From: a virus
Lineage: Duplodnaviria; Heunggongvirae; Uroviricota; Caudoviricetes
Length of the DNA stretch: 9,726 nt
IMG/VR virus record: IMGVR_UViG_2731957841_000002
Coordinates: 1-9,726 of that record
Direction: 5' to 3' (one strand)
Positions 1-9,726 of this stretch are shown here, in pieces. The notes below the pieces were generated by a model. It was given only the letters and a program-made list of their open reading frames with translations. It did no database searches and was not told the DNA's origin. Position 1 is the first letter of the stretch. The number at the start of each line of letters is the position of its first letter. The position numbers were made by a program, and so were the translations under genes.

Positions 1-1155
1 ATGCTCACCGTTAAGCAGATTGAAGCAGCAAAGCCGAAAGAAAAACCATACCGCCTACTCGATGGTAATGGCCTGTACCTTTATGTCCCTGTGTCAGGGA
101 AAAAGGTATGGCAGCTTCGCTACAAGATTGACGGTAAGGAAAAAATACTGACCGTAGGAAAATATCCGCTAATGACTTTGCAGGAGGCAAGAGATAAAGC
201 ATGGACCGCGAGGAAAGACATCTCGGTTGGCATCGATCCGGTAAAAGCGAAAAAGGCTTCGTCTAACAACAATTCCTTTAGTGCGATTTACAAGGAATGG
301 TACGAGCACAAGAAGCAAGTCTGGTCAGTAGGCTATGCAAACGAACTTGCCAAAATGTTTGATGACGACATTTTACCCATCATCGGCGGTCTTGAGATTC
401 AGGATATTGAGCCGATGCAACTGTTGGAAGTAATCCGCAGATTTGAAGATCGCGGTGCAATGGAGCGAGCCAACAAAGCACGCAGAAGATGCGGCGAGGT
501 TTTCCGTTACGCTATTGTCACTGGTAGGGCTAAATATAACCCGGCACCTGACCTTGCTGACGCCATGAAGGGATACCGCAAGAAGAACTTCCCGTTTCTT
601 CCAGCAGACCAGATCCCGGCATTCAACAAAGCACTGGCAACATTTTCAGGAAGTATCGTATCGCTCATTGCGACCAAAGTTTTACGCTACACAGCCCTAA
701 GAACGAAAGAACTTCGCTCCATGCAATGGAAGAACGTCGATTTTGAAAACAGGATTATCACCATCGACGCCAGTGTGATGAAGGGACGCAAAATTCATGT
801 GGTCCCGATGTCAGACCAGGTGGTTGAACTTCTCACTACGCTAAGCTCAATCACCAAACCAGTCTCAGAGTTTGTTTTTTCCGGGCGCAACGATAAGAAG
901 AAGCCAATCTGCGAGAACGCGGTATTGCTTGTGATCAAACAAATCGGCTATGAAGGCCTGGAAAGCGGTCACGGATTCAGGCATGAATTCAGCACGATTA
1001 TGAACGAGCACGAATGGCCTGCTGACGCTATTGAAGTGCAGCTGGCACATGCCAACGGCGGATCTGTGCGCGGTATTTACAACCATGCTCAGTATCTCGA
1101 TAAGCGCAGAGAAATGATGCAGTGGTGGGCGGATTGGCTTGATGGGAAGGTGTGA
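1..1155 (+). CDS. intS: Tyrosine site-specific integrase, P4 family (IntS-like)
   Basis: 384-aa ORF. N-terminus MLTVKQIEAAKPKEKPYRLLDGNGLYLYV fits the P4-integrase arm-binding domain pattern. C-terminal catalytic region has GHGFRHEF (His/Arg) and RGIYNHAQY (candidate Tyr nucleophile). Symbol assigned from memory of E. coli IntS; not verified. Confidence 0.9.
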   Translation: MLTVKQIEAAKPKEKPYRLLDGNGLYLYVPVSGKKVWQLRYKIDGKEKILTVGKYPLMTLQEARDKAWTARKDISVGIDPVKAKKASSNNNSFSAIYKEWYEHKKQVWSVGYANELAKMFDDDILPIIGGLEIQDIEPMQLLEVIRRFEDRGAMERANKARRRCGEVFRYAIVTGRAKYNPAPDLADAMKGYRKKNFPFLPADQIPAFNKALATFSGSIVSLIATKVLRYTALRTKELRSMQWKNVDFENRIITIDASVMKGRKIHVVPMSDQVVELLTTLSSITKPVSEFVFSGRNDKKKPICENAVLLVIKQIGYEGLESGHGFRHEFSTIMNEHEWPADAIEVQLAHANGGSVRGIYNHAQYLDKRREMMQWWADWLDGKV

Positions 1156-1158
1156 GGC

Positions 1159-1218
1159 ATTAGCGCAAGACGAATCGACACCTTCGCCAGTTTTGAGTTT
1201 TTTTTGCGCTAATTTTTT
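1159..1218 (+). terminator. Candidate intrinsic terminator after integrase gene
   Basis: 10-bp inverted repeat ATTAGCGCAA (1159-1168) / TTGCGCTAAT (1204-1213) followed by a T6 run (1213-1218). The enclosed loop is long (35 nt), so the call is weak. Confidence 0.3.
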
Positions 1219-1252
1219 GCCACAATCATGCTCCAGGCAATGAAAGCAAGCT

Positions 1253-1275
1253 GATGGTAGGTTATGATTACCATC
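1253..1275. promoter_or_regulatory. Inverted repeat GATGGTA-N9-TACCATC upstream of acyltransferase gene (candidate operator or RNA hairpin)
   Basis: Perfect 7-bp arms at 1253-1259 and 1269-1275, about 33 bp upstream of the ATG at 1308, at the GC-content transition into the AT-rich cargo gene. Confidence 0.2.
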
Positions 1276-1307
1276 TAATATTTATTCTTAAATAAGATGA
1301 GTATAGC

Positions 1308-2402
1308 ATGACCCTAAATAATAAAAACCTTGACATTCAAGCGCTAAGGGCGGTAGCCATAATAATGGTTATTCTACAACATTATAGAAATAGATTACCT
1401 TCGCCAGATTGGTATTTGAGCAGTTTTAATTACGTTAATTATTGGGCTGGAGTTGATATATTTTTGGCTATATCTGGATATTTGATGGCTAAAAGCTTAA
1501 CTGGGGAAATAAAAAAAACCGGCAGAACAACTAAAACATTTTTATTATTTTTATCTAAAAGAATATTTAGGCTAGCCCCATGCTTACTTGTATGGGGCAC
1601 CATCTGTATAATAATCTCTTATTTTATGCAACCTTCTTGGGGTGTTTCACCTCTTAAATCATTCACTACGTTATATACATCCCTACTTGGTTATTCTAAT
1701 ATCCACTTCTATAGGTGCGCAGTAACAGCAAATGATTGTGACCAAATGAATGCGGTGACCTGGTCTCTATCTTTGGAATGGCAACTGTATGCTATAATTG
1801 CGGCAATCATGCTGCTCTTTAACAGGAAAAATCTGACGATTATTTTCATATTCATAGTAGCTATTGCATCTTTCCTGCCAGTAACTCAAATGTACTATCA
1901 ATCCATTGGTTGGTGGATTAGACCACAAGCATTCTTTCTGGGAGCAATTATATTCATAACTGGAAGCAAGTGTTATGTAAGCAATAAATGCACAAGACTA
2001 TTTTTTATTATAGTTTGCATTTTTGTTTTACTCGTTGCCCCTCAGCACTTTAACTATAGATTGACATTACCTGCGATTGGTTTTGCTGGTGCATTATTAT
2101 TTCTATGTTTTATTAGTGGTGGTGTGGTAGATAAAAAAGATAATCCAGCATATAAAATGCTGGACTGGATTGGGGATAGATCTTATAGCATTTATCTTTG
2201 CCATTTACCATTACTACATGTAACAAGGGAGGTTTTGAACAAACTCTCCCTTAATACCGTCATTTACGAAAACAAAGTTATATACTTCTTCGCTTTCATT
2301 CTTTTGCTAGTTGTCTTTTCTGATTTATCATATAGATATGTAGAAAAGAAATTTATAAGAACAGGGAGACTAATAATGAGTAAAAATATTTCACCACTAT
2401 AA
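1308..2402 (+). CDS. Integral-membrane acyltransferase, acyltransferase-3 family (Oac/OafA-like O-antigen acetyltransferase candidate)
   Basis: 364-aa ORF, very hydrophobic with multiple predicted TM segments. N-terminal motif LRAVAIIMVILQH matches the conserved R-x10-H region of acyltransferase-3 proteins. Strongly AT-rich relative to flanking genes. Sits in the integrase-proximal cargo slot. Confidence 0.8.
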   Translation: MTLNNKNLDIQALRAVAIIMVILQHYRNRLPSPDWYLSSFNYVNYWAGVDIFLAISGYLMAKSLTGEIKKTGRTTKTFLLFLSKRIFRLAPCLLVWGTICIIISYFMQPSWGVSPLKSFTTLYTSLLGYSNIHFYRCAVTANDCDQMNAVTWSLSLEWQLYAIIAAIMLLFNRKNLTIIFIFIVAIASFLPVTQMYYQSIGWWIRPQAFFLGAIIFITGSKCYVSNKCTRLFFIIVCIFVLLVAPQHFNYRLTLPAIGFAGALLFLCFISGGVVDKKDNPAYKMLDWIGDRSYSIYLCHLPLLHVTREVLNKLSLNTVIYENKVIYFFAFILLLVVFSDLSYRYVEKKFIRTGRLIMSKNISPL

Positions 2403-2576
2403 TTCATCAATATATTCAGGGGGCAAAAACCTACCCTCTGAATATGTATACCCAACACCAACAACGCTATTGTCGTCAAGCTTTATACAGAGATAATCAT
2501 CGTATTGTTTTCCATCGCCGTTCCATAATATAACGTTAATCACAACATCATTTTCTACCAATGCATATTTCATCAT
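2397..2576 (-). CDS. Small hypothetical protein (59 aa), translationally coupled to the upstream fibre gene
   Basis: Hand-translated: MMKYALVENDVVINVILWNGDGKQYDDYLCIKLDDNSVVGVGYTYSEGRFLPPEYIDEL. Its ATG (2576-2574) overlaps the fibre gene TGA (2575-2573) as ATGA. Below the length cut-off of the supplied ORF track. Its 3' end overlaps the convergent acyltransferase stop by 6 bp. Confidence 0.4.
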   Translation of the reverse strand: MMKYALVENDVVINVILWNGDGKQYDDYLCIKLDDNSVVGVGYTYSEGRFLPPEYIDEL

Positions 2577-3475
2577 GCATACTCCCAGATAAGAACAATA
2601 CCATTACCACCGGCGGCTCCGTTATATTGGGTGGCATTATTCACATATGCGTTAGCCCCACCGCCCCCAGCCCCGAAACCAGTCGGCAATACACCGATAC
2701 CCGCTGAGCCGTGTGGATTACCACCCACACCTAATGGACTATTACCTCCGCCACCAGAGATGATAGAGCTAGTCGATATAGCCATGCCAATAGTTGGATT
2801 CTCTCCAGAGAGATTTAAAATATTACCTCCGGATGCTATAGGAATTCCTGGTGAGTTCTGAATAATAGGAGGTACCCCATTTCCTGAACCACCACCAAAT
2901 CCACCGCCAGCGGTTATAGATCCGAAAGAAGATCCACCACCGTTTCCTCCATTACCGTTAACCCCACCAGCTCCACCAGCTCCAATGGTTACAGTATATG
3001 CTGAGTCTAAATTGGTGATACGGGATTTAGCGTAGGCGCCACCTCCCCCTCCACACCCAACTGCAACACTGGTAGAGTTAGTTGTACCAACCCCGCCCCC
3101 TCCTCCGCCTGCGCCTTGGACTTCAACAATAATGCTTTTCGTTCCTGGGGTTGGCGTATAAGTCCCGGATGTCGTTATTGTGCGAACACCAATAAGCCGT
3201 CCTGTTGCAGCCTGCTCTACCGCACTCGCTAATTGCGCAGAGAGCCCCGCAATATCACCATTATCTTTCACATCCTCACTGGTATTATCTGCGATAAACT
3301 GCCCCACAGCAGCCGCCATTGCCGTTCCTTGCCTCAGACCTTTGTTCACCTGAGCACTTGATGCCTTCCCCGATGTAAAGCCAGCAGATAGGACAGGTAA
3401 TGATTCCCAGTCTGTCTGAGTTGTTACGTTAGCACCAGAGCCAGTTGCAAATGGTTTAAATTCATTTTTAGCCAT
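2573..3475 (-). CDS. Glycine-rich phage tail-fibre-like protein
   Basis: Long GGxGG/GNGG tracts typical of phage fibre or collar proteins. N-terminus MAKNEFKPFATGSGANVTTQ. Start chosen at ATG 3475-3473, overlapping the upstream gene stop as TGATG. The ORF track's alternative start at 3493 adds 6 codons but has an SD only 1 nt from the ATG. Confidence 0.7.
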   Translation of the reverse strand: MAKNEFKPFATGSGANVTTQTDWESLPVLSAGFTSGKASSAQVNKGLRQGTAMAAAVGQFIADNTSEDVKDNGDIAGLSAQLASAVEQAATGRLIGVRTITTSGTYTPTPGTKSIIVEVQGAGGGGGGVGTTNSTSVAVGCGGGGGAYAKSRITNLDSAYTVTIGAGGAGGVNGNGGNGGGSSFGSITAGGGFGGGSGNGVPPIIQNSPGIPIASGGNILNLSGENPTIGMAISTSSIISGGGGNSPLGVGGNPHGSAGIGVLPTGFGAGGGGANAYVNNATQYNGAAGGNGIVLIWEYA

Positions 3476-4155
3476 CAGAGTAATTTCCCCCATGCTCCTA
3501 CATCAAAACCACTGATGAATTCGTTATCCATATCAAAACCAAAAAATTTTGAACCTTCCGATGGAGTTTCCACCGAAGGTGTTTCAATGCCACCCGCCCA
3601 CACACCGGCGGCTTTTACTGTGAGATACCCCTGTTTAATTGCCGCAATTAACTCACGCGATACATCTGAAATATCAGTATCAGGAAAGACCCAGACCGAT
3701 ATCGTCATGTCCTGGTTATCGACAATCTGCATTCGCAGCCCGGCTCCTGCTGTCGCCGTGTCAAGAATTGCCGGAAGCGAATCATTCCGTCCGTCCCAGT
3801 TATTAATCGCAATCTTCGCTTTAAGGATGACACGATAAGTTTCATCGCTGAGGTACATGTATCCGGAATCAGGATCGTATGGCCCCTGCCATACACCCTG
3901 ATCATATCCAAGCCCGTCGGTATCCCAGCTGAAATAGATACCTGAGATAGGCTGGCTGACAACACGGCTACGCCCGATCCACAATCCCAGAATGTCAAGT
4001 TGCACACCAACGGCAGAGTCAATATCAAATGCAGTAATCAGCCCTCTGGTGGCAGCCGCAACATCAATAAGCGGCCGGGTCATCAGATCAACATGCGCAA
4101 GAAATTTAGGTTTGGTGGCGTGGTAGTTCGTGATTAGTTCGGTGTATTTGCTCAT
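3475..4155 (-). CDS. Phage tail/baseplate-associated protein of unknown function (possibly DUF2612-type)
   Basis: 226-aa ORF in an operon with the fibre gene. ATGA overlap with the upstream 172-aa gene. Family assignment is from memory and tentative. Confidence 0.7.
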   Translation of the reverse strand: MSKYTELITNYHATKPKFLAHVDLMTRPLIDVAAATRGLITAFDIDSAVGVQLDILGLWIGRSRVVSQPISGIYFSWDTDGLGYDQGVWQGPYDPDSGYMYLSDETYRVILKAKIAINNWDGRNDSLPAILDTATAGAGLRMQIVDNQDMTISVWVFPDTDISDVSRELIAAIKQGYLTVKAAGVWAGGIETPSVETPSEGSKFFGFDMDNEFISGFDVGAWGKLL

Positions 4156-4670
4156 GACTCCACCGTTATAACGATATTTTCCGGGGTACAGGACGCAGAT
4201 TCGTTATATCTGATATCAATGTTTGATGACGACAAAGCCCCCGGGGATTTCCCAATCGTCAGTTCCTGAATATCGTAATAGCGTGCATTACCGGTTTTAG
4301 CGTTGGCATTATCCGGTTGTTTCTGGAACGCAACACTGCGTGCCGTGATGATGTCGCCGCTGACCTTGTTGCGGATCACGATAACGTTATTCCCCCATGT
4401 GGCAGAAGACTGGCTCTGTGCGTTATACGCCAGCGACAATTTTTTATTTGTCGGTGATGTCTTCAGAAGGTTAACGGTAATCGTCCCGCTTTTATCTGCA
4501 TGGAGACTGTGCATCACTTCGCCATCAGCACCGATGGTCATGGTGTTTTTAGGACCGCCCATCGCAACCACAATCCCCTCTTCAGAACTTGCAGAACCGT
4601 ACCCGAGGTCAATCGAACCGGTCGGCCCGGTCAGCGTCGCAGTGACATCCATAAAAGAATAGGTAGACAT
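4152..4670 (-). CDS. Phage tail-module protein, unknown function (172 aa)
   Basis: First gene of the leftward tail remnant. SD-like AAGGGGAAG upstream of the ATG at 4670. Coupled to the downstream gene. Confidence 0.7.
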   Translation of the reverse strand: MSTYSFMDVTATLTGPTGSIDLGYGSASSEEGIVVAMGGPKNTMTIGADGEVMHSLHADKSGTITVNLLKTSPTNKKLSLAYNAQSQSSATWGNNVIVIRNKVSGDIITARSVAFQKQPDNANAKTGNARYYDIQELTIGKSPGALSSSNIDIRYNESASCTPENIVITVES

Positions 4671-4680
4671 TCACTTCCCC

Positions 4681-4773
4681 TTAGCGAACAACGTTAATCT
4701 GTACGTCAGCGTAATGAACCGCGCCTGCAAGTTTTATTGCAGCCTGAATCACCGGAGCCTTAAGGGCGCACAT
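4681..4773 (-). pseudogene. Probable C-terminal remnant of a deleted late gene (30-codon ORF ending ...APVIQAAIKLAGAVHYADVQINVVR)
   Basis: Hand-translated frame reads like a genuine protein C-terminus and stops just before the RBS of the 172-aa gene. Overlaps the end of the truncated cro-like ORF in another frame. Confidence 0.3.
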
Positions 4774-4882
4774 AGATCCCCTTCACCTTGTCTGCGGTAG
4801 CTCCCTGTGTGCATCCAACTGCCTTAGCAAGTGTTGTTTGAGAGATATTCAGTGACTCTCGATATTTTCGTAGGTTGCTCAT
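4760..4882 (-). CDS. Cro-like HTH protein, apparently C-terminally truncated (40 aa)
   Basis: MSNLRKYRESLNISQTTLAKAVGCTQGATADKVKGIYVRP has an HTH (ISQTTLAKAVGC) and is divergent from cI, as cro is in lambda. GGAGGG lies upstream of the ATG. Shorter than typical Cro proteins (about 60-75 aa). The ORF track's 97-aa version runs upstream through the operator region. Confidence 0.5.
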   Translation of the reverse strand: MSNLRKYRESLNISQTTLAKAVGCTQGATADKVKGIYVRP

Positions 4883-4908
4883 ATGCCCTCCATAGTAACC
4901 ATGAAACA

Positions 4909-4937
4909 ATAATACGATATGTACTTTTAGAATGCAA
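4909..4937 (-). promoter_or_regulatory. pR-like promoter for the cro-like gene
   Basis: On the minus strand: -35 TTGCAT (4937-4932), 17-bp spacer, -10 TATTAT (4914-4909). The spacer contains a GTAC-centred motif shared with the pL region, a candidate operator. Confidence 0.4.
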
Positions 4938-4993
4938 ACAAAAAATACATCTTGTGCATGGATGGTTTTAGTACAGAGCGTAATAATAAGGGT

Positions 4994-5653
4994 ATGAAAA
5001 TGAAATGGTATGAACTGGCTAGATCCAGAATGAAAGAGCTCGGCATAACTCAAGAGAAGTTAGCTGAAGAGCTTGGTATGACGCAGGGTGGAATTGGTCA
5101 CTGGTTGCGCGGATCTCGTCATCCATCTCTTGACGAGATTGGTGTGGTGTTTAAATACCTTGGTATTGATAACGTCTCATTCAACCACGACGGTACATTT
5201 TCACCTGTTGGCGAATACTCATCTGCCCCCGTTAAAAAACAATATGAGTACCCTGTTTTTTCTCATGTTCAGGCCGGGATGTTCTCGCCTGAGCTTAGAA
5301 CCTTTACCAAAGGTGATGCGGAGAGATGGGTCAGCACAACCAAAAAAGCCAGTGATTGTGCGTTTTGGCTTGAAGTTGAAGGTAATTCCATGACCGCGCC
5401 AACAGGATCCAAGCCAAGCTTTCCTGACGGGATGTTAATTCTCGTTGACCCTGATCAGGCTGTTGAGCCAGGTGATTTCTGCATAGCCAGACTTGGTGGT
5501 GACGAGTTTACCTTTAAGAAACTGATCAGGGATAGCGGTCAGGTGTTCCTCCAGCCACTAAACCCGCAATATCCAATGATTCCATGCAATGATAGCTGTT
5601 CCGTAGTAGGGAAAGTTATCGCCAGCCAGTGGCCTGAAGAGACATTTAGTTAA
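4994..5653 (+). CDS. cI: CI-type prophage repressor (HTH N-terminal domain plus S24 LexA-like autopeptidase C-terminal domain)
   Basis: C-terminal half nearly matches lambda cI as I recall it: [50 protein letters not shown] (Ser nucleophile), FTFKKL (Lys), plus an Ala-Gly cleavage site in QAGM. N-terminal HTH domain is unlike lambda. Start placed at ATG 4994 (AAGGG upstream) rather than the TTG at 4952 in the ORF track. Confidence 0.9.
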
Positions 5654-5684
5654 CAGCCTCACCACTCTAAAACACACAACAATA

Positions 5685-5713
5685 ACCCGACCTTAGCGTC
5701 GGGTTTTCTTTTT
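5685..5713 (+). terminator. Intrinsic terminator downstream of cI
   Basis: Stem ACCCGAC (5685-5691) / GTCGGGT (5698-5704), 6-nt loop, then TTTCTTTTT (5705-5713). Confidence 0.6.
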
Positions 5714-5778
5714 CCAAAATATAAACCCATTAAATACAAAGCGTTATAAAAAACTAATTATATTTAGAACATTTTGTA

Positions 5779-5807
5779 TTGACTCGATAAAGTACAAATC
5801 GTACTAT
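5779..5807 (+). promoter_or_regulatory. pL-like early-left promoter
   Basis: -35 TTGACT (5779-5784), 17-bp spacer, -10 TACTAT (5802-5807). The downstream transcript start region ATCAGCAGGACGCACTGACC matches the lambda pL transcript start as I recall it. Confidence 0.5.
5791..5805. promoter_or_regulatory. Candidate repressor operator (palindrome AGTAC-N5-GTACT) overlapping the pL -10
   Basis: Perfect 5-bp inverted arms. Related AGTAC/GTACT motifs recur in the cro-cI intergenic region (4921-4925, 4970-4974). Confidence 0.3.
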
Positions 5808-5846
5808 TTAGCCATCAGCAGGACGCACTGACCACCATGAAGGTGA

Positions 5847-5877
5847 TGCTCTTAAAAATTAAGCCCTGAAGAAGGGC
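5847..5877 (+). promoter_or_regulatory. nutL-type antitermination site (boxA TGCTCTTAA plus boxB hairpin GCCCTGAAGAAGGGC)
   Basis: boxB (5863-5877) is identical to the lambda nutL boxB. boxA (5847-5855) differs from lambda CGCTCTTAA at its first base and resembles the rrn-type boxA TGCTCTT. Spacer is AAATTAA as in lambda. Confidence 0.7.
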
Positions 5878-6049
5878 AGCATTCAAAGCAGAAGGCTTTG
5901 GGGTGTGGTGAAGGGTTCATGGATGGGAATATGTCGCACGTAAAGCGGCGAGGCCTGCGGAACTATTGCCGAATTGAAGTCGGCCGAAGCAGGTCGAAAT
6001 GGGTCTCCCACCTACCACACCACCAAAGCTAACTGACAGGAGAATCCAG

Positions 6050-6253
6050 ATGGCAAAGCAATCAAAACCATCACCTACACCTGAACAGGTTCTAAAAGCA
6101 TTCACTGACGCAGCAATGCAGAAAAACACCGTGGAAGAGCTTAAACAGGCGTTCGCCAAAGCGTGGAAGATGCTCGAAGGAACACCGGAGCAGCACAAAG
6201 CGCAGGACGTTTACAACATCAGACGAGACGAATTAGAAGGAGCGGCTGCTTAA
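6050..6253 (+). CDS. Hypothetical small protein (67 aa) in the position lambda N would occupy; not N-like
   Basis: AGGAGA RBS and ATG context match the lambda N start region as I recall it, but the protein (MAKQSKPSPTPEQVLKAF...) has no arginine-rich motif. The ORF track's upstream extension from 5999 lacks an RBS. Confidence 0.6.
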   Translation: MAKQSKPSPTPEQVLKAFTDAAMQKNTVEELKQAFAKAWKMLEGTPEQHKAQDVYNIRRDELEGAAA

Positions 6254-6636
6254 TGGCACATTCGATTACTGTAAGACTAAACAAACCCGCAAGAGAGTTT
6301 CAGGCCGGGGAAAATATCGGATTCAACATCCGTGCTGGCGTTCAGTATTACGATCGCCAGACAAAAAAGAAAGAATGGACAAACTACAGCGCCGTTGTAT
6401 TTGCCAAGCCAGGAGCGCAAGCGGATTACTACCGTAGTGTTCTTGTTGAAGGTGGCATTGTGGAAATTACCGGAGAAAACATCAGGGTTGATGTTTATCA
6501 GGGGCAAAATGGTCAATCAATCACTCTTGAATTACTGAATGCAAAGATTGGATTTGCAACTTCAGGAAACAGCCAACAGCAGCAAAGTAGCAATCATCAA
6601 AATCATCCTGAATACGACGATTCAATTCCCTTCTAA
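6253..6636 (+). CDS. SSB-like single-stranded DNA-binding protein (short form, 127 aa) with conserved acidic C-terminal tip
   Basis: C-terminus ...PEYDDSIPF resembles the E. coli SSB tip DFDDDIPF, preceded by a Q-rich linker. The N-terminal ~100 aa is compatible with an OB fold (KEWTNYSAVVFAK, VEGGIVEITGE). TAATG stop/start overlap with the upstream gene. Confidence 0.7.
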   Translation: MAHSITVRLNKPAREFQAGENIGFNIRAGVQYYDRQTKKKEWTNYSAVVFAKPGAQADYYRSVLVEGGIVEITGENIRVDVYQGQNGQSITLELLNAKIGFATSGNSQQQQSSNHQNHPEYDDSIPF

Positions 6637-6659
6637 AGTAGCAAAATAAGGATTCCATT

Positions 6660-6953
6660 ATGCCAGCGCCTCTGTATGGTGCGGATGACCCGCGCCGCTG
6701 TTCCGGCAATTCCGTATCGGAGGTGCTGGATAAATTCAGAAAAAACTACGACCTGATAATGTCGCTACCGCAGGAAACGAAAGAGGAAAAGGAATTTCGT
6801 CATTGTATATGGCTTGCAGAGAAAGAAGAGCGCGAGCGAATTTACCAGACATCAATCCGACCATTCCGCAAAGCCACATATACCCACTTCCCTGAAATTG
6901 ACCCGCGCCTGCGTAATTACCGCTCACGCTATGGCGCTATCAGTAATGACTGA
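6660..6953 (+). CDS. Hypothetical protein (97 aa)
   Basis: AAGGA RBS 7 nt upstream of the ATG. Operon context. No recognisable domain. Confidence 0.6.
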   Translation: MPAPLYGADDPRRCSGNSVSEVLDKFRKNYDLIMSLPQETKEEKEFRHCIWLAEKEERERIYQTSIRPFRKATYTHFPEIDPRLRNYRSRYGAISND

Positions 6954-6963
6954 GGAATTAACA

Positions 6964-7254
6964 ATGAAAACAATGAAGCTAAACATCGACCTCGGAAAAT
7001 ACGTTATTACCGGAACCAAACACGACCTGATTCTTAGTGAAATAGGAATTATCAAAGAAGGTGAGAATGCAGGGAAAGAAACACTAAGTCGTATCGGTTA
7101 TTACAGCAAGTTTGAGCATCTGGTTAAAGAGTTATGCAACCGTGAAATTCTGTTATCTCAGGCGCAGACGTTACAGGATATTCAGCAGCATATCGAGACT
7201 TTATGTGTGTCACTTAGCATGGCTATTGACCAGTTCGTGGAGAGTAAATCATGA
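6964..7254 (+). CDS. Hypothetical protein (96 aa)
   Basis: GAGGAA RBS upstream of ATG 6964. The ORF track's longer version from 6814 overlaps the preceding gene and lacks an RBS. Confidence 0.6.
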
Positions 7255-7415
7255 GAGGACTTGCATACAATCCCGGCATTCTTCCGGCAGAAATGATTAT
7301 TCGCCAACGCGTAAAGCCAATGCCATCGAGAGAGGAATTGCTTAAGAGAAATTCTTTTCCGTCAGTAAATCAAAACAAATATCTGAATGCGATGTTGCGG
7401 AGTGGGAAAAAATGA
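7251..7415 (+). CDS. Hypothetical small basic protein (54 aa), translationally coupled at both ends
   Basis: Hand-translated: [58 protein letters not shown] overlap with the upstream gene stop and ATGA overlap with the downstream gene start. Below the ORF-track length cut-off. Confidence 0.35.
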
Positions 7416-7963
7416 AACAAATGTCACTAATTGAGATGGATGGTTTTCTGAAAGATAAATGCATCCCAAGTGATTTAAAGGTTAACGAAACAAACGCTGA
7501 ATATCTGGTGCGTAAATTTGCTGAAGCGGAGGCCAAGATTTCGGCTCTGTCCGAAGACCAGCAGAGAGCGATTGAGTCAATTAAGCAGGCTGATGCAGCT
7601 GTTAAGTTGGCACACGAGAAGTTTTCGGCGCTTGCGGCGGAGAATGCGGTAATGCTCGAAACTATTGAAGCCGTTCGCAGTGTTGCGGATAACTCCAGTG
7701 GAATTGCCGGATGGCATTTGAATGGCGATATCGCCACATGGGAAGAGATTCTTCCTGAAATTAACGATATCGAAACCCCAGCCACCGATGCTTTCCTGGC
7801 TGAAGTACGGGCGCAGGGGGTAGAGATGTACGCAGATAACCTCGACAACGTAGCAGACGACGCAGAACGAGGTGGTTTTGATTATGCCGTTAAGTTTCTA
7901 CGCAGTGAAGCGTCTAGTGTACGTTTGTTCGCCGACCAGCTTCGCAAAGGAGGCAACCAGTGA
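7412..7963 (+). CDS. Hypothetical acidic protein (183 aa)
   Basis: Operon context. GTGA overlap with the downstream gene. The antisense 168-aa ORF over the same region is low-complexity and judged spurious. Confidence 0.65.
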
Positions 7964-8484
7964 GCAAGATTGACTATCAGGCACTGCGTGAGTTAGCAAA
8001 ACAGGCAACACAGGGTGAATGGGTCGCATTTATTTCGCCGGGCAAATACGGCACGTACGCCGTACACACACCAGGTGATAATCATCACGGAGATATTGTC
8101 GACTGGCCAGGATTCGACGAACAGAAAAACGCAGAGAACAACGCTCGTTATATCGCAGCTTTCAACCCTGAAGTAGTGCTGGCACTGCTGGATGAACGGG
8201 AAAGAAACCAGCAATACATAAAACGCCGCGATCAGGAGAACGAGGAAATTGCGTTAACGGTAGGGAAGTTGCGCGTTGAGCTTGAGGCAGAAAAACAGCG
8301 GGCAAAGGATCTGTTTATGGAAAATGCTCGGCTTAAGTCAGGTATAGCCGGTCTGATACACCTCGGTATTCGATATGCAGATGTTGAGGTCATGAAAATT
8401 GCTGGAGATGCCCAGCTTTCTACCCCATGCACTGACAGCATCATAAACAGCATTGCAACAGGCATTCGCATCAAAGGAGAGTAA
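7960..8484 (+). CDS. Ead/Ea22-like early protein
   Basis: N-terminus [21 protein letters not shown] matches the conserved N-terminal signature of Ead/Ea22-like lambdoid early-left proteins as I recall it. GTG start with AAAGGAGG RBS. Confidence 0.75.
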   Translation: MSKIDYQALRELAKQATQGEWVAFISPGKYGTYAVHTPGDNHHGDIVDWPGFDEQKNAENNARYIAAFNPEVVLALLDERERNQQYIKRRDQENEEIALTVGKLRVELEAEKQRAKDLFMENARLKSGIAGLIHLGIRYADVEVMKIAGDAQLSTPCTDSIINSIATGIRIKGE

Positions 8485-8686
8485 TATGAGCAGGAATACG
8501 GGTTTGTAAAAGATAACGCTTGTGAAAATGCTGAATTTCGCGTCGTCTTCACAGCGATGCCAGAGTCTGTAGTGTCAGATGATGACCGTACTCAAACATC
8601 GGGTTGAGTATTATCTTACTGTTTCTTTACATAAACATTGCTGATACCGTTTAGCTGAAACGACATACATTGCAAGGAGTTTATAA

Positions 8687-8968
8687 ATGAGTATCAATGA
8701 GTTAGAGTCTGAGCAAAAAGATTGGGCGTTATCAATGTTGTGCAGATCCGGTGTCTTGTCTCCATGCAGACATCACGAAGGTGTTTATGTAGATGAAGGT
8801 ATAGATATAGAGTCGGCATACAAATATTCCATGAAGGTTTATAAGTCTAATGAAGACAAATCCCCATTCTGCAATGTGCGAGAAATGACTGATACCGTGC
8901 AAAATTATTATCACGAGTACGGTGGAAACGATACTTGCCCTCTCTGTACAAAACATATAGATGATTAA
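8687..8968 (+). CDS. Hypothetical Cys-containing small protein (93 aa), AT-rich
   Basis: AAGGAG RBS 8 nt upstream. Five Cys including a CPLC pair. Preceded by a 200-bp intergenic region and followed by tandem terminators, a moron-like arrangement. Confidence 0.6.
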   Translation: MSINELESEQKDWALSMLCRSGVLSPCRHHEGVYVDEGIDIESAYKYSMKVYKSNEDKSPFCNVREMTDTVQNYYHEYGGNDTCPLCTKHIDD

Positions 8969-8986
8969 ACCAAATATTACATAACA

Positions 8987-9015
8987 ATCCTCGCACTCGC
9001 GGGGATTTCTTTTAT
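8987..9015 (+). terminator. Intrinsic terminator (first of tandem pair)
   Basis: Stem ATCCTCGC / GCGGGGAT (one G-U wobble), 4-nt loop ACTC, followed by TTCTTTTAT. Confidence 0.5.
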
Positions 9016-9018
9016 CTG

Positions 9019-9044
9019 AACTCGCTACGGCGAGTTTTGTTTTA
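9019..9044 (+). terminator. Intrinsic terminator (second of tandem pair)
   Basis: Stem ACTCGC (9020-9025) / GCGAGT (9030-9035), loop TACG, followed by TTTGTTTTA. Confidence 0.55.
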
Positions 9045-9056
9045 TGGAGACAAGAA

Positions 9057-9401
9057 ATGTCAGATTTGGCTATGAAGGTTTTGAAATGGCAATCGACTAG
9101 CGATGTCAGTATCAGTAGCGCAACTCTTGCCTCAATCGCATGTGGACTGAAAAAGAATATCTATGGTCATCACTTCGGCGCTCCCCATGACGCAGCAGAC
9201 TTTCGGCGATGCGTTGCACTTGTTGAGCAGATTCCAGAAATCAGAGATTCATTCAACAAGGTTGCAAAGCGCGTTCCGGCATTCAAAGGAATCCTCAACG
9301 AATGGGATTCCCTCGTTGCTCTGTTGAAGTCTGAAATGAAGATACACGGAAACAAAGCACCAGAGACTTACAGAAGAATCAGCGAGCTACGCAAGGACTA
9401 A
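9057..9401 (+). CDS. Hypothetical protein (114 aa)
   Basis: GGAGA RBS upstream. Lies between the terminator pair and torI. A short hairpin (GCCTCA...TGAGGC, 9407-9425) follows it. Confidence 0.6.
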   Translation: MSDLAMKVLKWQSTSDVSISSATLASIACGLKKNIYGHHFGAPHDAADFRRCVALVEQIPEIRDSFNKVAKRVPAFKGILNEWDSLVALLKSEMKIHGNKAPETYRRISELRKD

Positions 9402-9525
9402 CCACCGCCTCACACTCGATGAGGCCTGTTCATTTCTCAAGATATCCAGACCTACCATTGCTGCATCAATGCGGCTTTTTATTGCCTGATTTGCAGGTTC
9501 AATTCCATATTCGGAGATAGCACTC

Positions 9526-9726
9526 ATGCAACACGAACTACAACCTGATTCACTGGTTGATTTGAAATTCATCATGGCTGATACTGGCTTCGGTAAGACC
9601 TTCATCTATGACCGGATTAAGTCCGGCGACCTGCCTAAAGCCAAAGTTATCCACGGACGAGCAAGATGGTTATATCGTGACCATTGTGAATTCAAAAATA
9701 AGCTCTTAAGCCGCGCCAATGGGTAA
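9526..9726 (+). CDS. torI: Excisionase / recombination directionality factor, TorI-like
   Basis: 66-aa protein MQHELQPDSLVDLKFIMADTGFGKTFIYDRIKSGDLPKAKVIHGRARWLYRDHCEFKNKLLSRANG matches TorI of E. coli KplE1 as I recall it. GGAGA RBS upstream. The window ends at its stop codon. Confidence 0.9.
   Translation: MQHELQPDSLVDLKFIMADTGFGKTFIYDRIKSGDLPKAKVIHGRARWLYRDHCEFKNKLLSRANG

Follow-up and report, generated by a model that had tools for sequence, protein, structure and literature searches.

A tail-fibre-linked AT3 acyltransferase in an argW prophage remnant of Escherichia coli is a candidate surface-glycan O-acetyltransferase

What does a single AT-rich membrane acyltransferase gene do in a decayed prophage, placed between the integrase gene and a tail-fibre gene? 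The locus lies in a 9,726-nt stretch of viral DNA (IMG/VR record IMGVR_UViG_2731957841_000002, positions 1 to 9,726; the window, meaning the whole stretch analysed), a ~10 kb prophage remnant at the tRNA-Arg gene argW in Escherichia coli. The window is 100% identical to the E. coli assembly contig GCA_027987795.1, between tRNA-Arg/yfdC and dsdC, with the order argW-intS-AT3...torI-dsdC, and argW is also the site of the defective prophage KplE1/CPS-53 in strain K-12. Judged from its sequence, the gene encodes a bona fide acyltransferase of the AT3 (acyltransferase-3) family with its catalytic motifs intact, and it represents an uncharacterised lineage, new within a familiar class of phage cargo and found in an equally familiar slot. 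The conserved linkage of the gene is with the tail-fibre module, not with the integrase, and its most likely role is the acetylation of a surface sugar that blocks phage re-infection.

The open reading frame (ORF) occupies 1308..2402 on the plus strand and encodes 364 aa. The family assignment, which the initial annotation had left to a profile search, was borne out by Pfam: the protein matches PF01757 (Acyl_transf_3) with E=1.4e-28 and 100.4 bits against a gathering score of 31 bits, and the match spans residues 8-341 and profile positions 2-324 of 326. The phage family phrog_3333, 'O-acetyltransferase', also matches (E=2.5e-51). Zero NCBIfam families match, so the protein has no curated equivalog name.

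We examined the catalytic motifs in an alignment of 52 homologues, which are 31-75% identical to the window protein. The invariant positions include R14, H25, D50, F52, S56, G57, R85, R88, W152, S153, E157, H299 and E346. Specifically, the R-X10-H motif of transmembrane helix 1, described as 'absolutely conserved' in AT3 proteins (Arg14/His25 in OafB; PMC9833829), is present as the invariant pair R14 and H25, and the RXXR motif on the cytoplasmic face of helix 3 (PMC9833829) is present as R85-I-F-R88, with both arginines invariant. In addition, V49-D-I-F-L-A-I-S-G-Y58 agrees with the AT3 family motif V-X-X-F-F-X-(I/V/L)-S-G-(F/W/Y) (PMC9558356), with one conservative F-to-L change, while W152/E157 and E346 correspond to the published AT3 Trp138/Glu143 pair and C-terminal glutamate. 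The AT3 motifs are reported as essential or highly conserved (PMC9833829, PMC9558356).

The AlphaFold2 model built on the same alignment has a mean predicted local distance difference test score (pLDDT) of 93.4 and a predicted TM-score (pTM) of 0.91. Its long helices comprise residues 8-26, 48-71, 75-107, 151-170, 173-187, 207-222, 227-247, 250-269, 292-313 and 323-360, together with short loop helices, and the hydropathy peaks of the protein agree with these ten predicted helices. Transmembrane topology, which the initial annotation had listed as a check, is therefore predicted at about ten long helices, and the modelled protein conforms to the ten-helix fold expected of AT3 (PMC9833829). The chain stops past the tenth helix, at residue 364, and AT3 is its only Pfam domain; neither an SGNH domain nor an eleventh transmembrane helix is present by Pfam or AlphaFold2, which makes the protein an 'AT3-only' enzyme like Oac and led us to reject an AT3-SGNH fusion of the OafA, OafB or OatA type. 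A sequence search of the Protein Data Bank (PDB) returned zero matches. The sole meaningful fold match in the PDB by Foldseek was human HGSNAT (8vli; probability 1.00, TM-score 0.48), with bacterial AT3 proteins absent among the matches.

Among 50,697 deposited phage genomes, the best matches are 25-29% identical and include GtrC/OafB of phage BTP1 and several 'O-antigen acetylase' genes. Among the characterised E. coli and Shigella AT3 proteins compared, only Oac is detectably similar (27% identity, 53.5 bits, E=1.6e-11); in BLASTP, WecH of K-12 gave fragments only (E at least 0.23) and OpgC gave no match, and a housekeeping AT3 of the WecH/OpgC type was rejected for want of significant similarity. 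Taken together, these values make the protein a member of AT3 and not an orthologue of any characterised enzyme; it forms a separate lineage, of which Oac is the nearest characterised relative in E. coli/Shigella.

How is the gene placed in the prophage? It is flanked by the integrase gene and by a minus-strand gene for a Gly-rich tail-fibre protein, and the features of this end of the window are as follows.

1..1155, plus strand: intS-type tyrosine integrase (Pfam Phage_integrase, Arm-DNA-bind_3 and Phage_int_M), the left end of the argW prophage
1156..1219, plus strand: terminator-like hairpin with 10-bp perfect arms (1159-1168/1204-1213), followed by T6
1240..1275, plus strand: candidate promoter region from a promoter scan, with a weak sigma-70-like site ATGAAA-17-TATGAT (9/12) that a 7-bp inverted repeat overlaps
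1308..2402, plus strand: AT3-only membrane acyltransferase, candidate surface-glycan O-acetyltransferase (PF01757, phrog_3333, invariant motifs, AlphaFold2)
2397..2576, minus strand: 59-aa ORF (orf59) from the ORF list, matching phrog_14370 and phrog_18617, both families of unknown function
2410..2447, no strand assigned: hairpin with a 14-bp stem, 8 nt past the acyltransferase stop and within the 3' end of the convergent 59-aa ORF
2573..3493 (PGAP start 3475, 300 aa), minus strand: Gly-rich tail-fibre protein (Pfam Gly_rich_2; tail-fibre PHROGs 863, 11303 and 1396)
3475..4155, minus strand: baseplate wedge protein (DUF2612/Phage_Wedge1; Pfam 9.7e-47)
4152..4670, minus strand: in-frame tail-tube/baseplate-J chimera (blastn against the PI24 prophage and compared translations)

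The initial annotation had described an AT-rich 364-aa acyltransferase-3 between integrase and tail fibre, and the ORF list, the PF01757 match and base composition all confirm it. The gene has a GC content of 0.339 and a GC content at third codon positions (GC3) of 0.299, and the spacer on its intS side has a GC content of 0.382, against 0.48 for intS (GC3 0.54) and 0.48-0.50 for the tail genes; across the neighbours as a whole the values run from 0.45 to 0.52. Since GC is low at synonymous positions, the AT-richness is compositional and not just a bias of hydrophobic codons. The statement that the gene is far more AT-rich than its neighbours holds for this contrast, but the low-GC patch is wider than the gene: it also takes in the convergent 59-aa ORF (GC 0.35) and, by GC3, the Gly-rich fibre gene (GC3 0.34), whose glycine codons raise its overall GC. 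Furthermore, the fibre gene, which had been called a remnant, is full length, and the intact prophage of strain PI24 carries this same gene; the remnant is the remainder of the tail module, from which 8.1 kb is lost. The Gly-rich fibre is likely the receptor-binding protein of the parent myovirus. The start of the 59-aa ORF overlaps the fibre stop (ATGA), which suggests that it is translationally coupled to the fibre, and at the 3' end it shares 6 nt with the acyltransferase gene. This ORF accompanies the acyltransferase in every E. coli copy and is perhaps a small fibre chaperone or tip protein.

Comparison with related prophages places the gene in an established slot. The window integrase is identical to phage Sf6 Int at 379/384 positions (99%, BLASTP), and intS is annotated beside tRNA-Arg in strains PI24, E89 and TUM9812. 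Sf6 has the mirror-image layout (tailspike, convergent oac, int, attP, torI) and shares with the window early-left genes of the Ead/Ea22, DUF2737 and Abc2 types, and the final ORF of the window is the TorI excisionase. In K-12, intS is followed in the same slot by the gtr-type glucosylation genes yfdG, yfdH and yfdI, which verifies the gtrABS genes that the initial annotation had placed there for KplE1. The putative attP of phage Kapi1 is stated to be identical to those of Sf6, HK620 and KplE1 (PMC8787464). With a 99% identical integrase and oac in the same position in Sf6, the parallel with serotype-conversion slots is closer than had been claimed: the gene occupies an int/att-proximal slot next to a receptor-binding gene, as with the O-antigen acetyltransferases of serotype-converting phages, a group that includes Oac/OacA-D, phiV10 Oac and OafB. 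In alignments of the window, Sf6 and K-12, homology ends at the int stop codon and three unrelated cargoes lie beyond it, so the int-adjacent slot behaves like a cassette site. A spacer or promoter held in common with K-12 gtr or Sf6 oac was rejected, as there is no homology despite spacer lengths of 152/152/155 nt.

Is the integrase, then, the partner with which the gene is inherited? Comparison of the slot across prophages confirmed that it is shared with Sf6 and K-12, but showed that the conserved linkage is with the tail-fibre module. In particular, GCA_900448065.1 (9700-21095) carries the acyltransferase/fibre/baseplate module next to bioA/ybhB, in a hybrid prophage with lambda-type exc/int at its far end. 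Only a ~75-nt 3' fragment of intS precedes the acyltransferase there, so the gene travels with the phage tail-fibre end and not with a functional integrase. In TUM9812 (12700-14000) and MS15047, homology to the window begins at 1158, and the module, itself identical, is preceded by ~140 nt of extra spacer and by a second variant of intS (96.7% identity) whose 3' end differs; because the module is seen with two integrase alleles, its boundary at ~1158 is a recombination junction. In related E. coli prophages that share the baseplate and lack the acyltransferase, its place is taken by a conventional fibre, Tfa chaperones and an invertase.

The same linkage is seen outside E. coli, and homologues at 34-60% identity repeatedly lie in convergent orientation to tail-fibre genes in several unrelated myovirus prophages. 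An Atlantibacter hermannii prophage has the same array of AT3, small ORF, Gly-rich fibre and wedge genes at 60/48/71/75% identity, and homologues of 42-45% identity come immediately after fibre or fibre-chaperone genes, in convergent orientation, in three further prophages, namely a P2-like one (metagenomic), a Mu-like one in Enterobacter roggenkampii and a Mu-like one with a Gly-rich fibre in Serratia fonticola. On IMG/VR contigs, 6 of 12 clade members are followed within ~2.2 kb by a homologue of a fibre, chaperone or wedge gene that is encoded on the other strand. The linkage is thus kept at the lambda attachment site (there without intS), in Atlantibacter and in P2-like and Mu-like prophages. 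Every clade member examined has a GC content of 0.33-0.38, whatever the GC content of its locus (0.35-0.58). Further homologues adjoin insertion sequence (IS) elements or pagP.

The prophage itself is defective, as the in-frame tail-tube/baseplate-J chimera indicates. This 172-aa ORF joins the N-terminal ~128 aa of the tail-tube protein to the C-terminal ~44 aa of baseplate J, and blastn against the PI24 prophage places the 8.1 kb deletion at window 4287/4293, which joins PI24 locus coordinates 17138 and 25230. A second junction lies near window 4767, where the upstream region of the tube gene is joined to the cro/cI region. A truncated Cro-like helix-turn-helix (HTH) ORF (4760..5053, minus strand) faces an intact CI/LexA-like S24 repressor (4952..5653; HTH_3 and Peptidase_S24), and the immunity region kept in the defective prophage might still confer immunity.

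How might the gene be expressed? Its own upstream inverted repeat had been taken to suggest independent regulation. The 7-bp repeat within 1220-1307 (1253-1259/1269-1275) is at chance level, equalled in 204/2000 dinucleotide shuffles, and with 10% of the shuffles giving an equal repeat it carries no weight. The significant hairpin lies upstream, just before position 1220, and looks like the terminator of intS: its 10-bp arms (1159-1168/1204-1213) are equalled in 8/2000 shuffles, and the RNA folds at -22.4 kcal/mol and is followed by U6. This hairpin starts where the shared acyltransferase module starts (~1158), and a short-loop copy of it is found in the GCA_900448065.1 locus. We infer a terminator-type element after intS (1156-1219), which would be compatible with separate transcription of the acyltransferase gene, as annotated for Sf6 oac, and is not itself evidence of regulation. 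Because this hairpin separates the gene from intS, transcription of the acyltransferase in the lysogen probably starts at a promoter of its own. Past the gene, the hairpin at 2410..2447 folds at -18.7 kcal/mol on the plus strand and -17.8 kcal/mol on the minus strand, lacks a U-tail, and is possibly a bidirectional terminator or an RNA-stabilising hairpin. The spacer contains no GATC sites, the signature of Dam/OxyR phase variation, and an Rfam scan of 1050-2700 returned zero families. Two homopolymer tracts, A8 in the coding sequence (1511-1518; I-K-K codons) and T8 in the upstream hairpin loop (1198-1205), are constant in length in 13 E. coli loci, and thus give no sign of slipped-strand phase variation.

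What, then, would the enzyme do for the phage? We think it rather probable that it O-acetylates the O-antigen and so gives superinfection exclusion. The parent temperate myovirus would have carried a stand-alone AT3 inner-membrane enzyme as a lysogenic-conversion gene, or 'moron'. By analogy with the AT3 model for OafB/Oac, the ten-helix bundle would take cytoplasmic acetyl-CoA into a central cavity, where R14, R85 and R88 would hold the 3'-phosphate and His25 would stand at the periplasmic face; on the periplasmic side, the acyl group would pass to a hydroxyl of a lipid-linked or nascent surface polysaccharide, with the O-antigen repeat unit as the most likely acceptor. Neither the phage's own fibre (the Gly-rich protein encoded next door) nor related phages would then still bind or cleave the modified glycan, and the outcome would be superinfection exclusion and possibly a change of serotype. 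In this scheme the family, the intact motifs, the confident fold, the slot and the repeated neighbourhood of tail-fibre genes are shown, whereas donor and acceptor, phenotype and mode of transcription are inferred.

Two findings hint at the O-antigen. Among the characterised E. coli/Shigella enzymes only Oac is detectably similar, and a 55% homologue in Pantoea dispersa lies between the his operon and gnd/glycosyltransferase genes, an interval that we take to be the usual enterobacterial O-antigen region. Two further AT3 genes in that region (locus 6776-12471) are 30% and 23% identical to the window protein.

Several observations weigh against an O-antigen acetylase. Identity is low to any characterised O-antigen acetylase (27% to Oac and ~25% to OafB/GtrC of BTP1), and we found no description in the literature of the gene, its RefSeq accessions or an argW acyltransferase. 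The closest homologue outside E. coli (75%) lies away from phage or O-antigen genes, 400 nt after the bcsB-bcsC-bcsD-bcsZ cellulose operon (locus 8001-12645). Promoter-scan counts equal the shuffle expectation, so that the weak consensus match upstream of the gene occurs at chance frequency, and retention of the gene in decayed prophages may reflect recent spread and its position at the retained int end, not selection. AT3 acceptors include O-antigen, enterobacterial common antigen (ECA), osmoregulated periplasmic glucans (OPG), capsule, exopolysaccharide (EPS) and peptidoglycan (PMC9558356), a range too wide for sequence to fix the acceptor. Finally, the hosts carry different O-antigen clusters, and a strictly serotype-specific enzyme would not obviously be useful in all of them. 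Near the 75% homologue there are an unannotated 370-aa ORF and a second, divergent AT3 gene.

The host serogroups bear directly on the acceptor. By the wzx/wzy labels of PGAP, PI24 is O150 and TUM9812 is O98, while the O-antigen cluster of MS15047 is unlabelled and of mannose type, is hit by IS1 and IS5, and has a frameshifted wzzB. A link of the gene to one O-serogroup was therefore not borne out. The labelled O150 and O98 clusters contain no acetyltransferase gene, and we found no information on O-acetylation in O150/O98 in the O-antigen review. This mix is compatible with a common acceptor sugar, with a conserved glycan other than the O-antigen, or with function in some hosts only. The initial annotation, which called the gene a strong candidate for O-antigen acetylation, was right about an acyltransferase-3 in the slot of serotype-converting phages; it overstated the acceptor, given 27% identity to Oac, an acceptor that cannot be read from the protein, and O150 and O98 hosts.

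Might the acceptor be another surface or periplasmic glycan, such as lipopolysaccharide (LPS) core, ECA, colanic acid, group 4 capsule, cellulose or another EPS? We regard this as rather unlikely; the phenotype could be the same masking of a phage receptor or altered biofilm or envelope properties. A conserved acceptor would explain retention across the O150, O98 and unlabelled hosts, the known AT3 acceptors include such glycans (PMC9558356), and the 75% homologue directly follows bcsB-C-D-Z, with the second AT3 nearby. This adjacency, however, comes from two contigs of one organism, with the 400-nt gap after bcsZ. The protein has no detectable similarity to WecH (ECA) or OpgC (OPG) and no NCBIfam equivalog match, one homologue lies in the his-gnd O-antigen region, and the characterised phage-borne AT3 enzymes in the O-antigen section of the review all act on O-antigen (PMC9558356).

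In a further, bolder reading, the enzyme would have no particular O-antigen as its target: it would acetylate a sugar that is common to many E. coli surfaces and is the receptor of the Gly-rich fibre, and AT3, small ORF and fibre would form a portable module that pairs a receptor-binding protein with a mask for its receptor. Such a sugar may be the reducing-end GlcNAc of most O-units, or part of the LPS core or ECA. We consider this arrangement unlikely; if it were true, superinfection exclusion would be independent of serogroup, and the trio would be exchanged as a unit between different myovirus baseplates.

Is the gene, instead, a passenger with no current function, spared beside the int/attL end of an element that spread recently? 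The DNA module (window ~1158-2580) is present in just 4/5,426 complete E. coli genomes, all E. coli copies are at least 99.5% identical, which leaves little time for decay, both prophage ends are kept in every deletion derivative, and the promoter scan, at chance level, gave no convincing promoter. One copy is already disrupted: in E89, an IS1 lies at window 1374-1382 (codons 23-25, including the His25 codon; locus 6228-6995) with a 9-bp target duplication, and PGAP annotates an N-terminally shortened acyltransferase. This insertion would fit the loss of a surface-altering gene under selection, and chance is possible as well.

The full-length contractile-tail form of the prophage is found in PI24 and at loci L009 and L011, and there are at least four distinct internal-deletion derivatives (the window, with GCA_027987795.1 and L014; L010; L012; and TUM9812). 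Other features speak against a passenger. The acyltransferase ORF of the window is unbroken and has lost none of its catalytic residues, whereas the tail genes beside it have been removed or joined together. The smallest remnants, those of TUM9812 and MS15047, keep the gene with orf59 alone, and in MS15047 this is at a different chromosomal site. Specifically, what survives in MS15047 (an isolate from cerebrospinal fluid, CSF; locus 9001-10605) is the acyltransferase gene, orf59 and a 190-nt piece of the fibre gene between dacD and sbcB, bordered by an IS911 fragment and an integrase arm-binding fragment. Furthermore, the exact protein is indexed in 367 blocks of an assembly collection, and the clade is under clear constraint across genera, with motifs invariant at 31-75% identity. 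Isolates that carry the gene come from pigs, cattle and humans (CSF included) and belong to several serogroups. On balance, we consider a functionless passenger unlikely.

Least probable by far is that the enzyme acylates a small molecule or some other non-carbohydrate substrate, for instance a lipid or an antibiotic-like glycoside, or that it protects the lysogen through a non-catalytic membrane effect: the AT3 family does include macrolide and Nod factor acyltransferases (PMC9558356) and the acceptor site is unpredictable, but a place on a phage next to the tail fibre is, in Enterobacterales, typical of genes that modify receptors, the strict conservation of catalytic motifs argues for catalysis, and no biosynthetic cluster lies nearby in the PI24 and assembly loci.

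Acetylation of the O-antigen, the reading we prefer, would have practical consequences. If the enzyme O-acetylates LPS, it is a previously unrecognised factor modifying serotype and phage susceptibility in E. coli, and one invisible to in-silico serotyping based on wzx/wzy because the gene lies outside the O-antigen cluster. The gene adds a third cargo type, after gtr and oac, for the Sf6/KplE1-type integrase slot at argW, and the tail-fibre gene, as the conserved partner of this AT3 clade, is useful for predicting phage receptors or exclusion in phage therapy. The conceptual gain is small, as a system of this kind is textbook lysogenic conversion.

Among known systems, Sf6 Oac resembles the window gene in both protein and setting. 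Both proteins are stand-alone AT3 enzymes (333 aa for Oac and 364 aa here), in which the R-X10-H and RxxR motifs and the glutamate of a C-terminal VEK(K/R)F align, and both genes belong to argW-attached elements in which they come right after int, convergent to the receptor-binding gene, with a spacer of ~150 nt and torI/xis at the far end. They differ in that identity is 27% with 19% gaps, the spacer and promoter DNA are unrelated, and GC is 0.42 for oac against 0.34 here; the carrier here is a contractile-tail myovirus with a Gly-rich fibre, whereas Sf6 is a P22-like podovirus with an endorhamnosidase tailspike. GtrABS of KplE1/CPS-53 (yfdGHI) shares the argW-intS...torI-dsdC site, the slot after intS, a 152-nt spacer and a ~10 kb defective prophage. 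That system has three genes (the GtrA flippase, the GtrB bactoprenol glucosyltransferase and a serotype-specific glycosyltransferase) in contrast to the single acyltransferase here, has no homology to the window past the int stop, and has GATC in its spacer, where the window has none. Membership of a Gtr cassette was rejected, as there is one gene between intS and the tail genes and there are no Gtr-type Pfam matches.

OafB of BTP1 (GtrC family II) and OafA share the AT3 domain with the window protein, with R14/H25 at the same residue numbers, and OafB, also carried by a phage, is an O-antigen acetylase giving protection from that phage's own tailspike (PMC9833829, PMC9558356). Unlike the window protein, OafA and OafB have an eleventh helix and a fused periplasmic SGNH domain, and the window gene has no Dam/OxyR phase-variation signature upstream. 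Human HGSNAT (8vli), the best match among solved structures, is likewise a transmembrane enzyme of acetyl-CoA-dependent acetyl transfer, but it is 14% identical, larger, eukaryotic and lysosomal, and the resemblance in fold is partial. The uncharacterised tail-fibre-adjacent AT3 genes of Enterobacterales prophages (Atlantibacter hermannii, Serratia fonticola, Enterobacter roggenkampii and the P2-like metagenomic prophage) belong to the same clade at 42-60% identity, have the same low GC content of 0.33-0.38 and, like the window gene, sit where the tail-fibre operon has its distal end and converge with it, although their baseplates and fibres are of other types (P2-like, Mu-like) and their integration sites are different.

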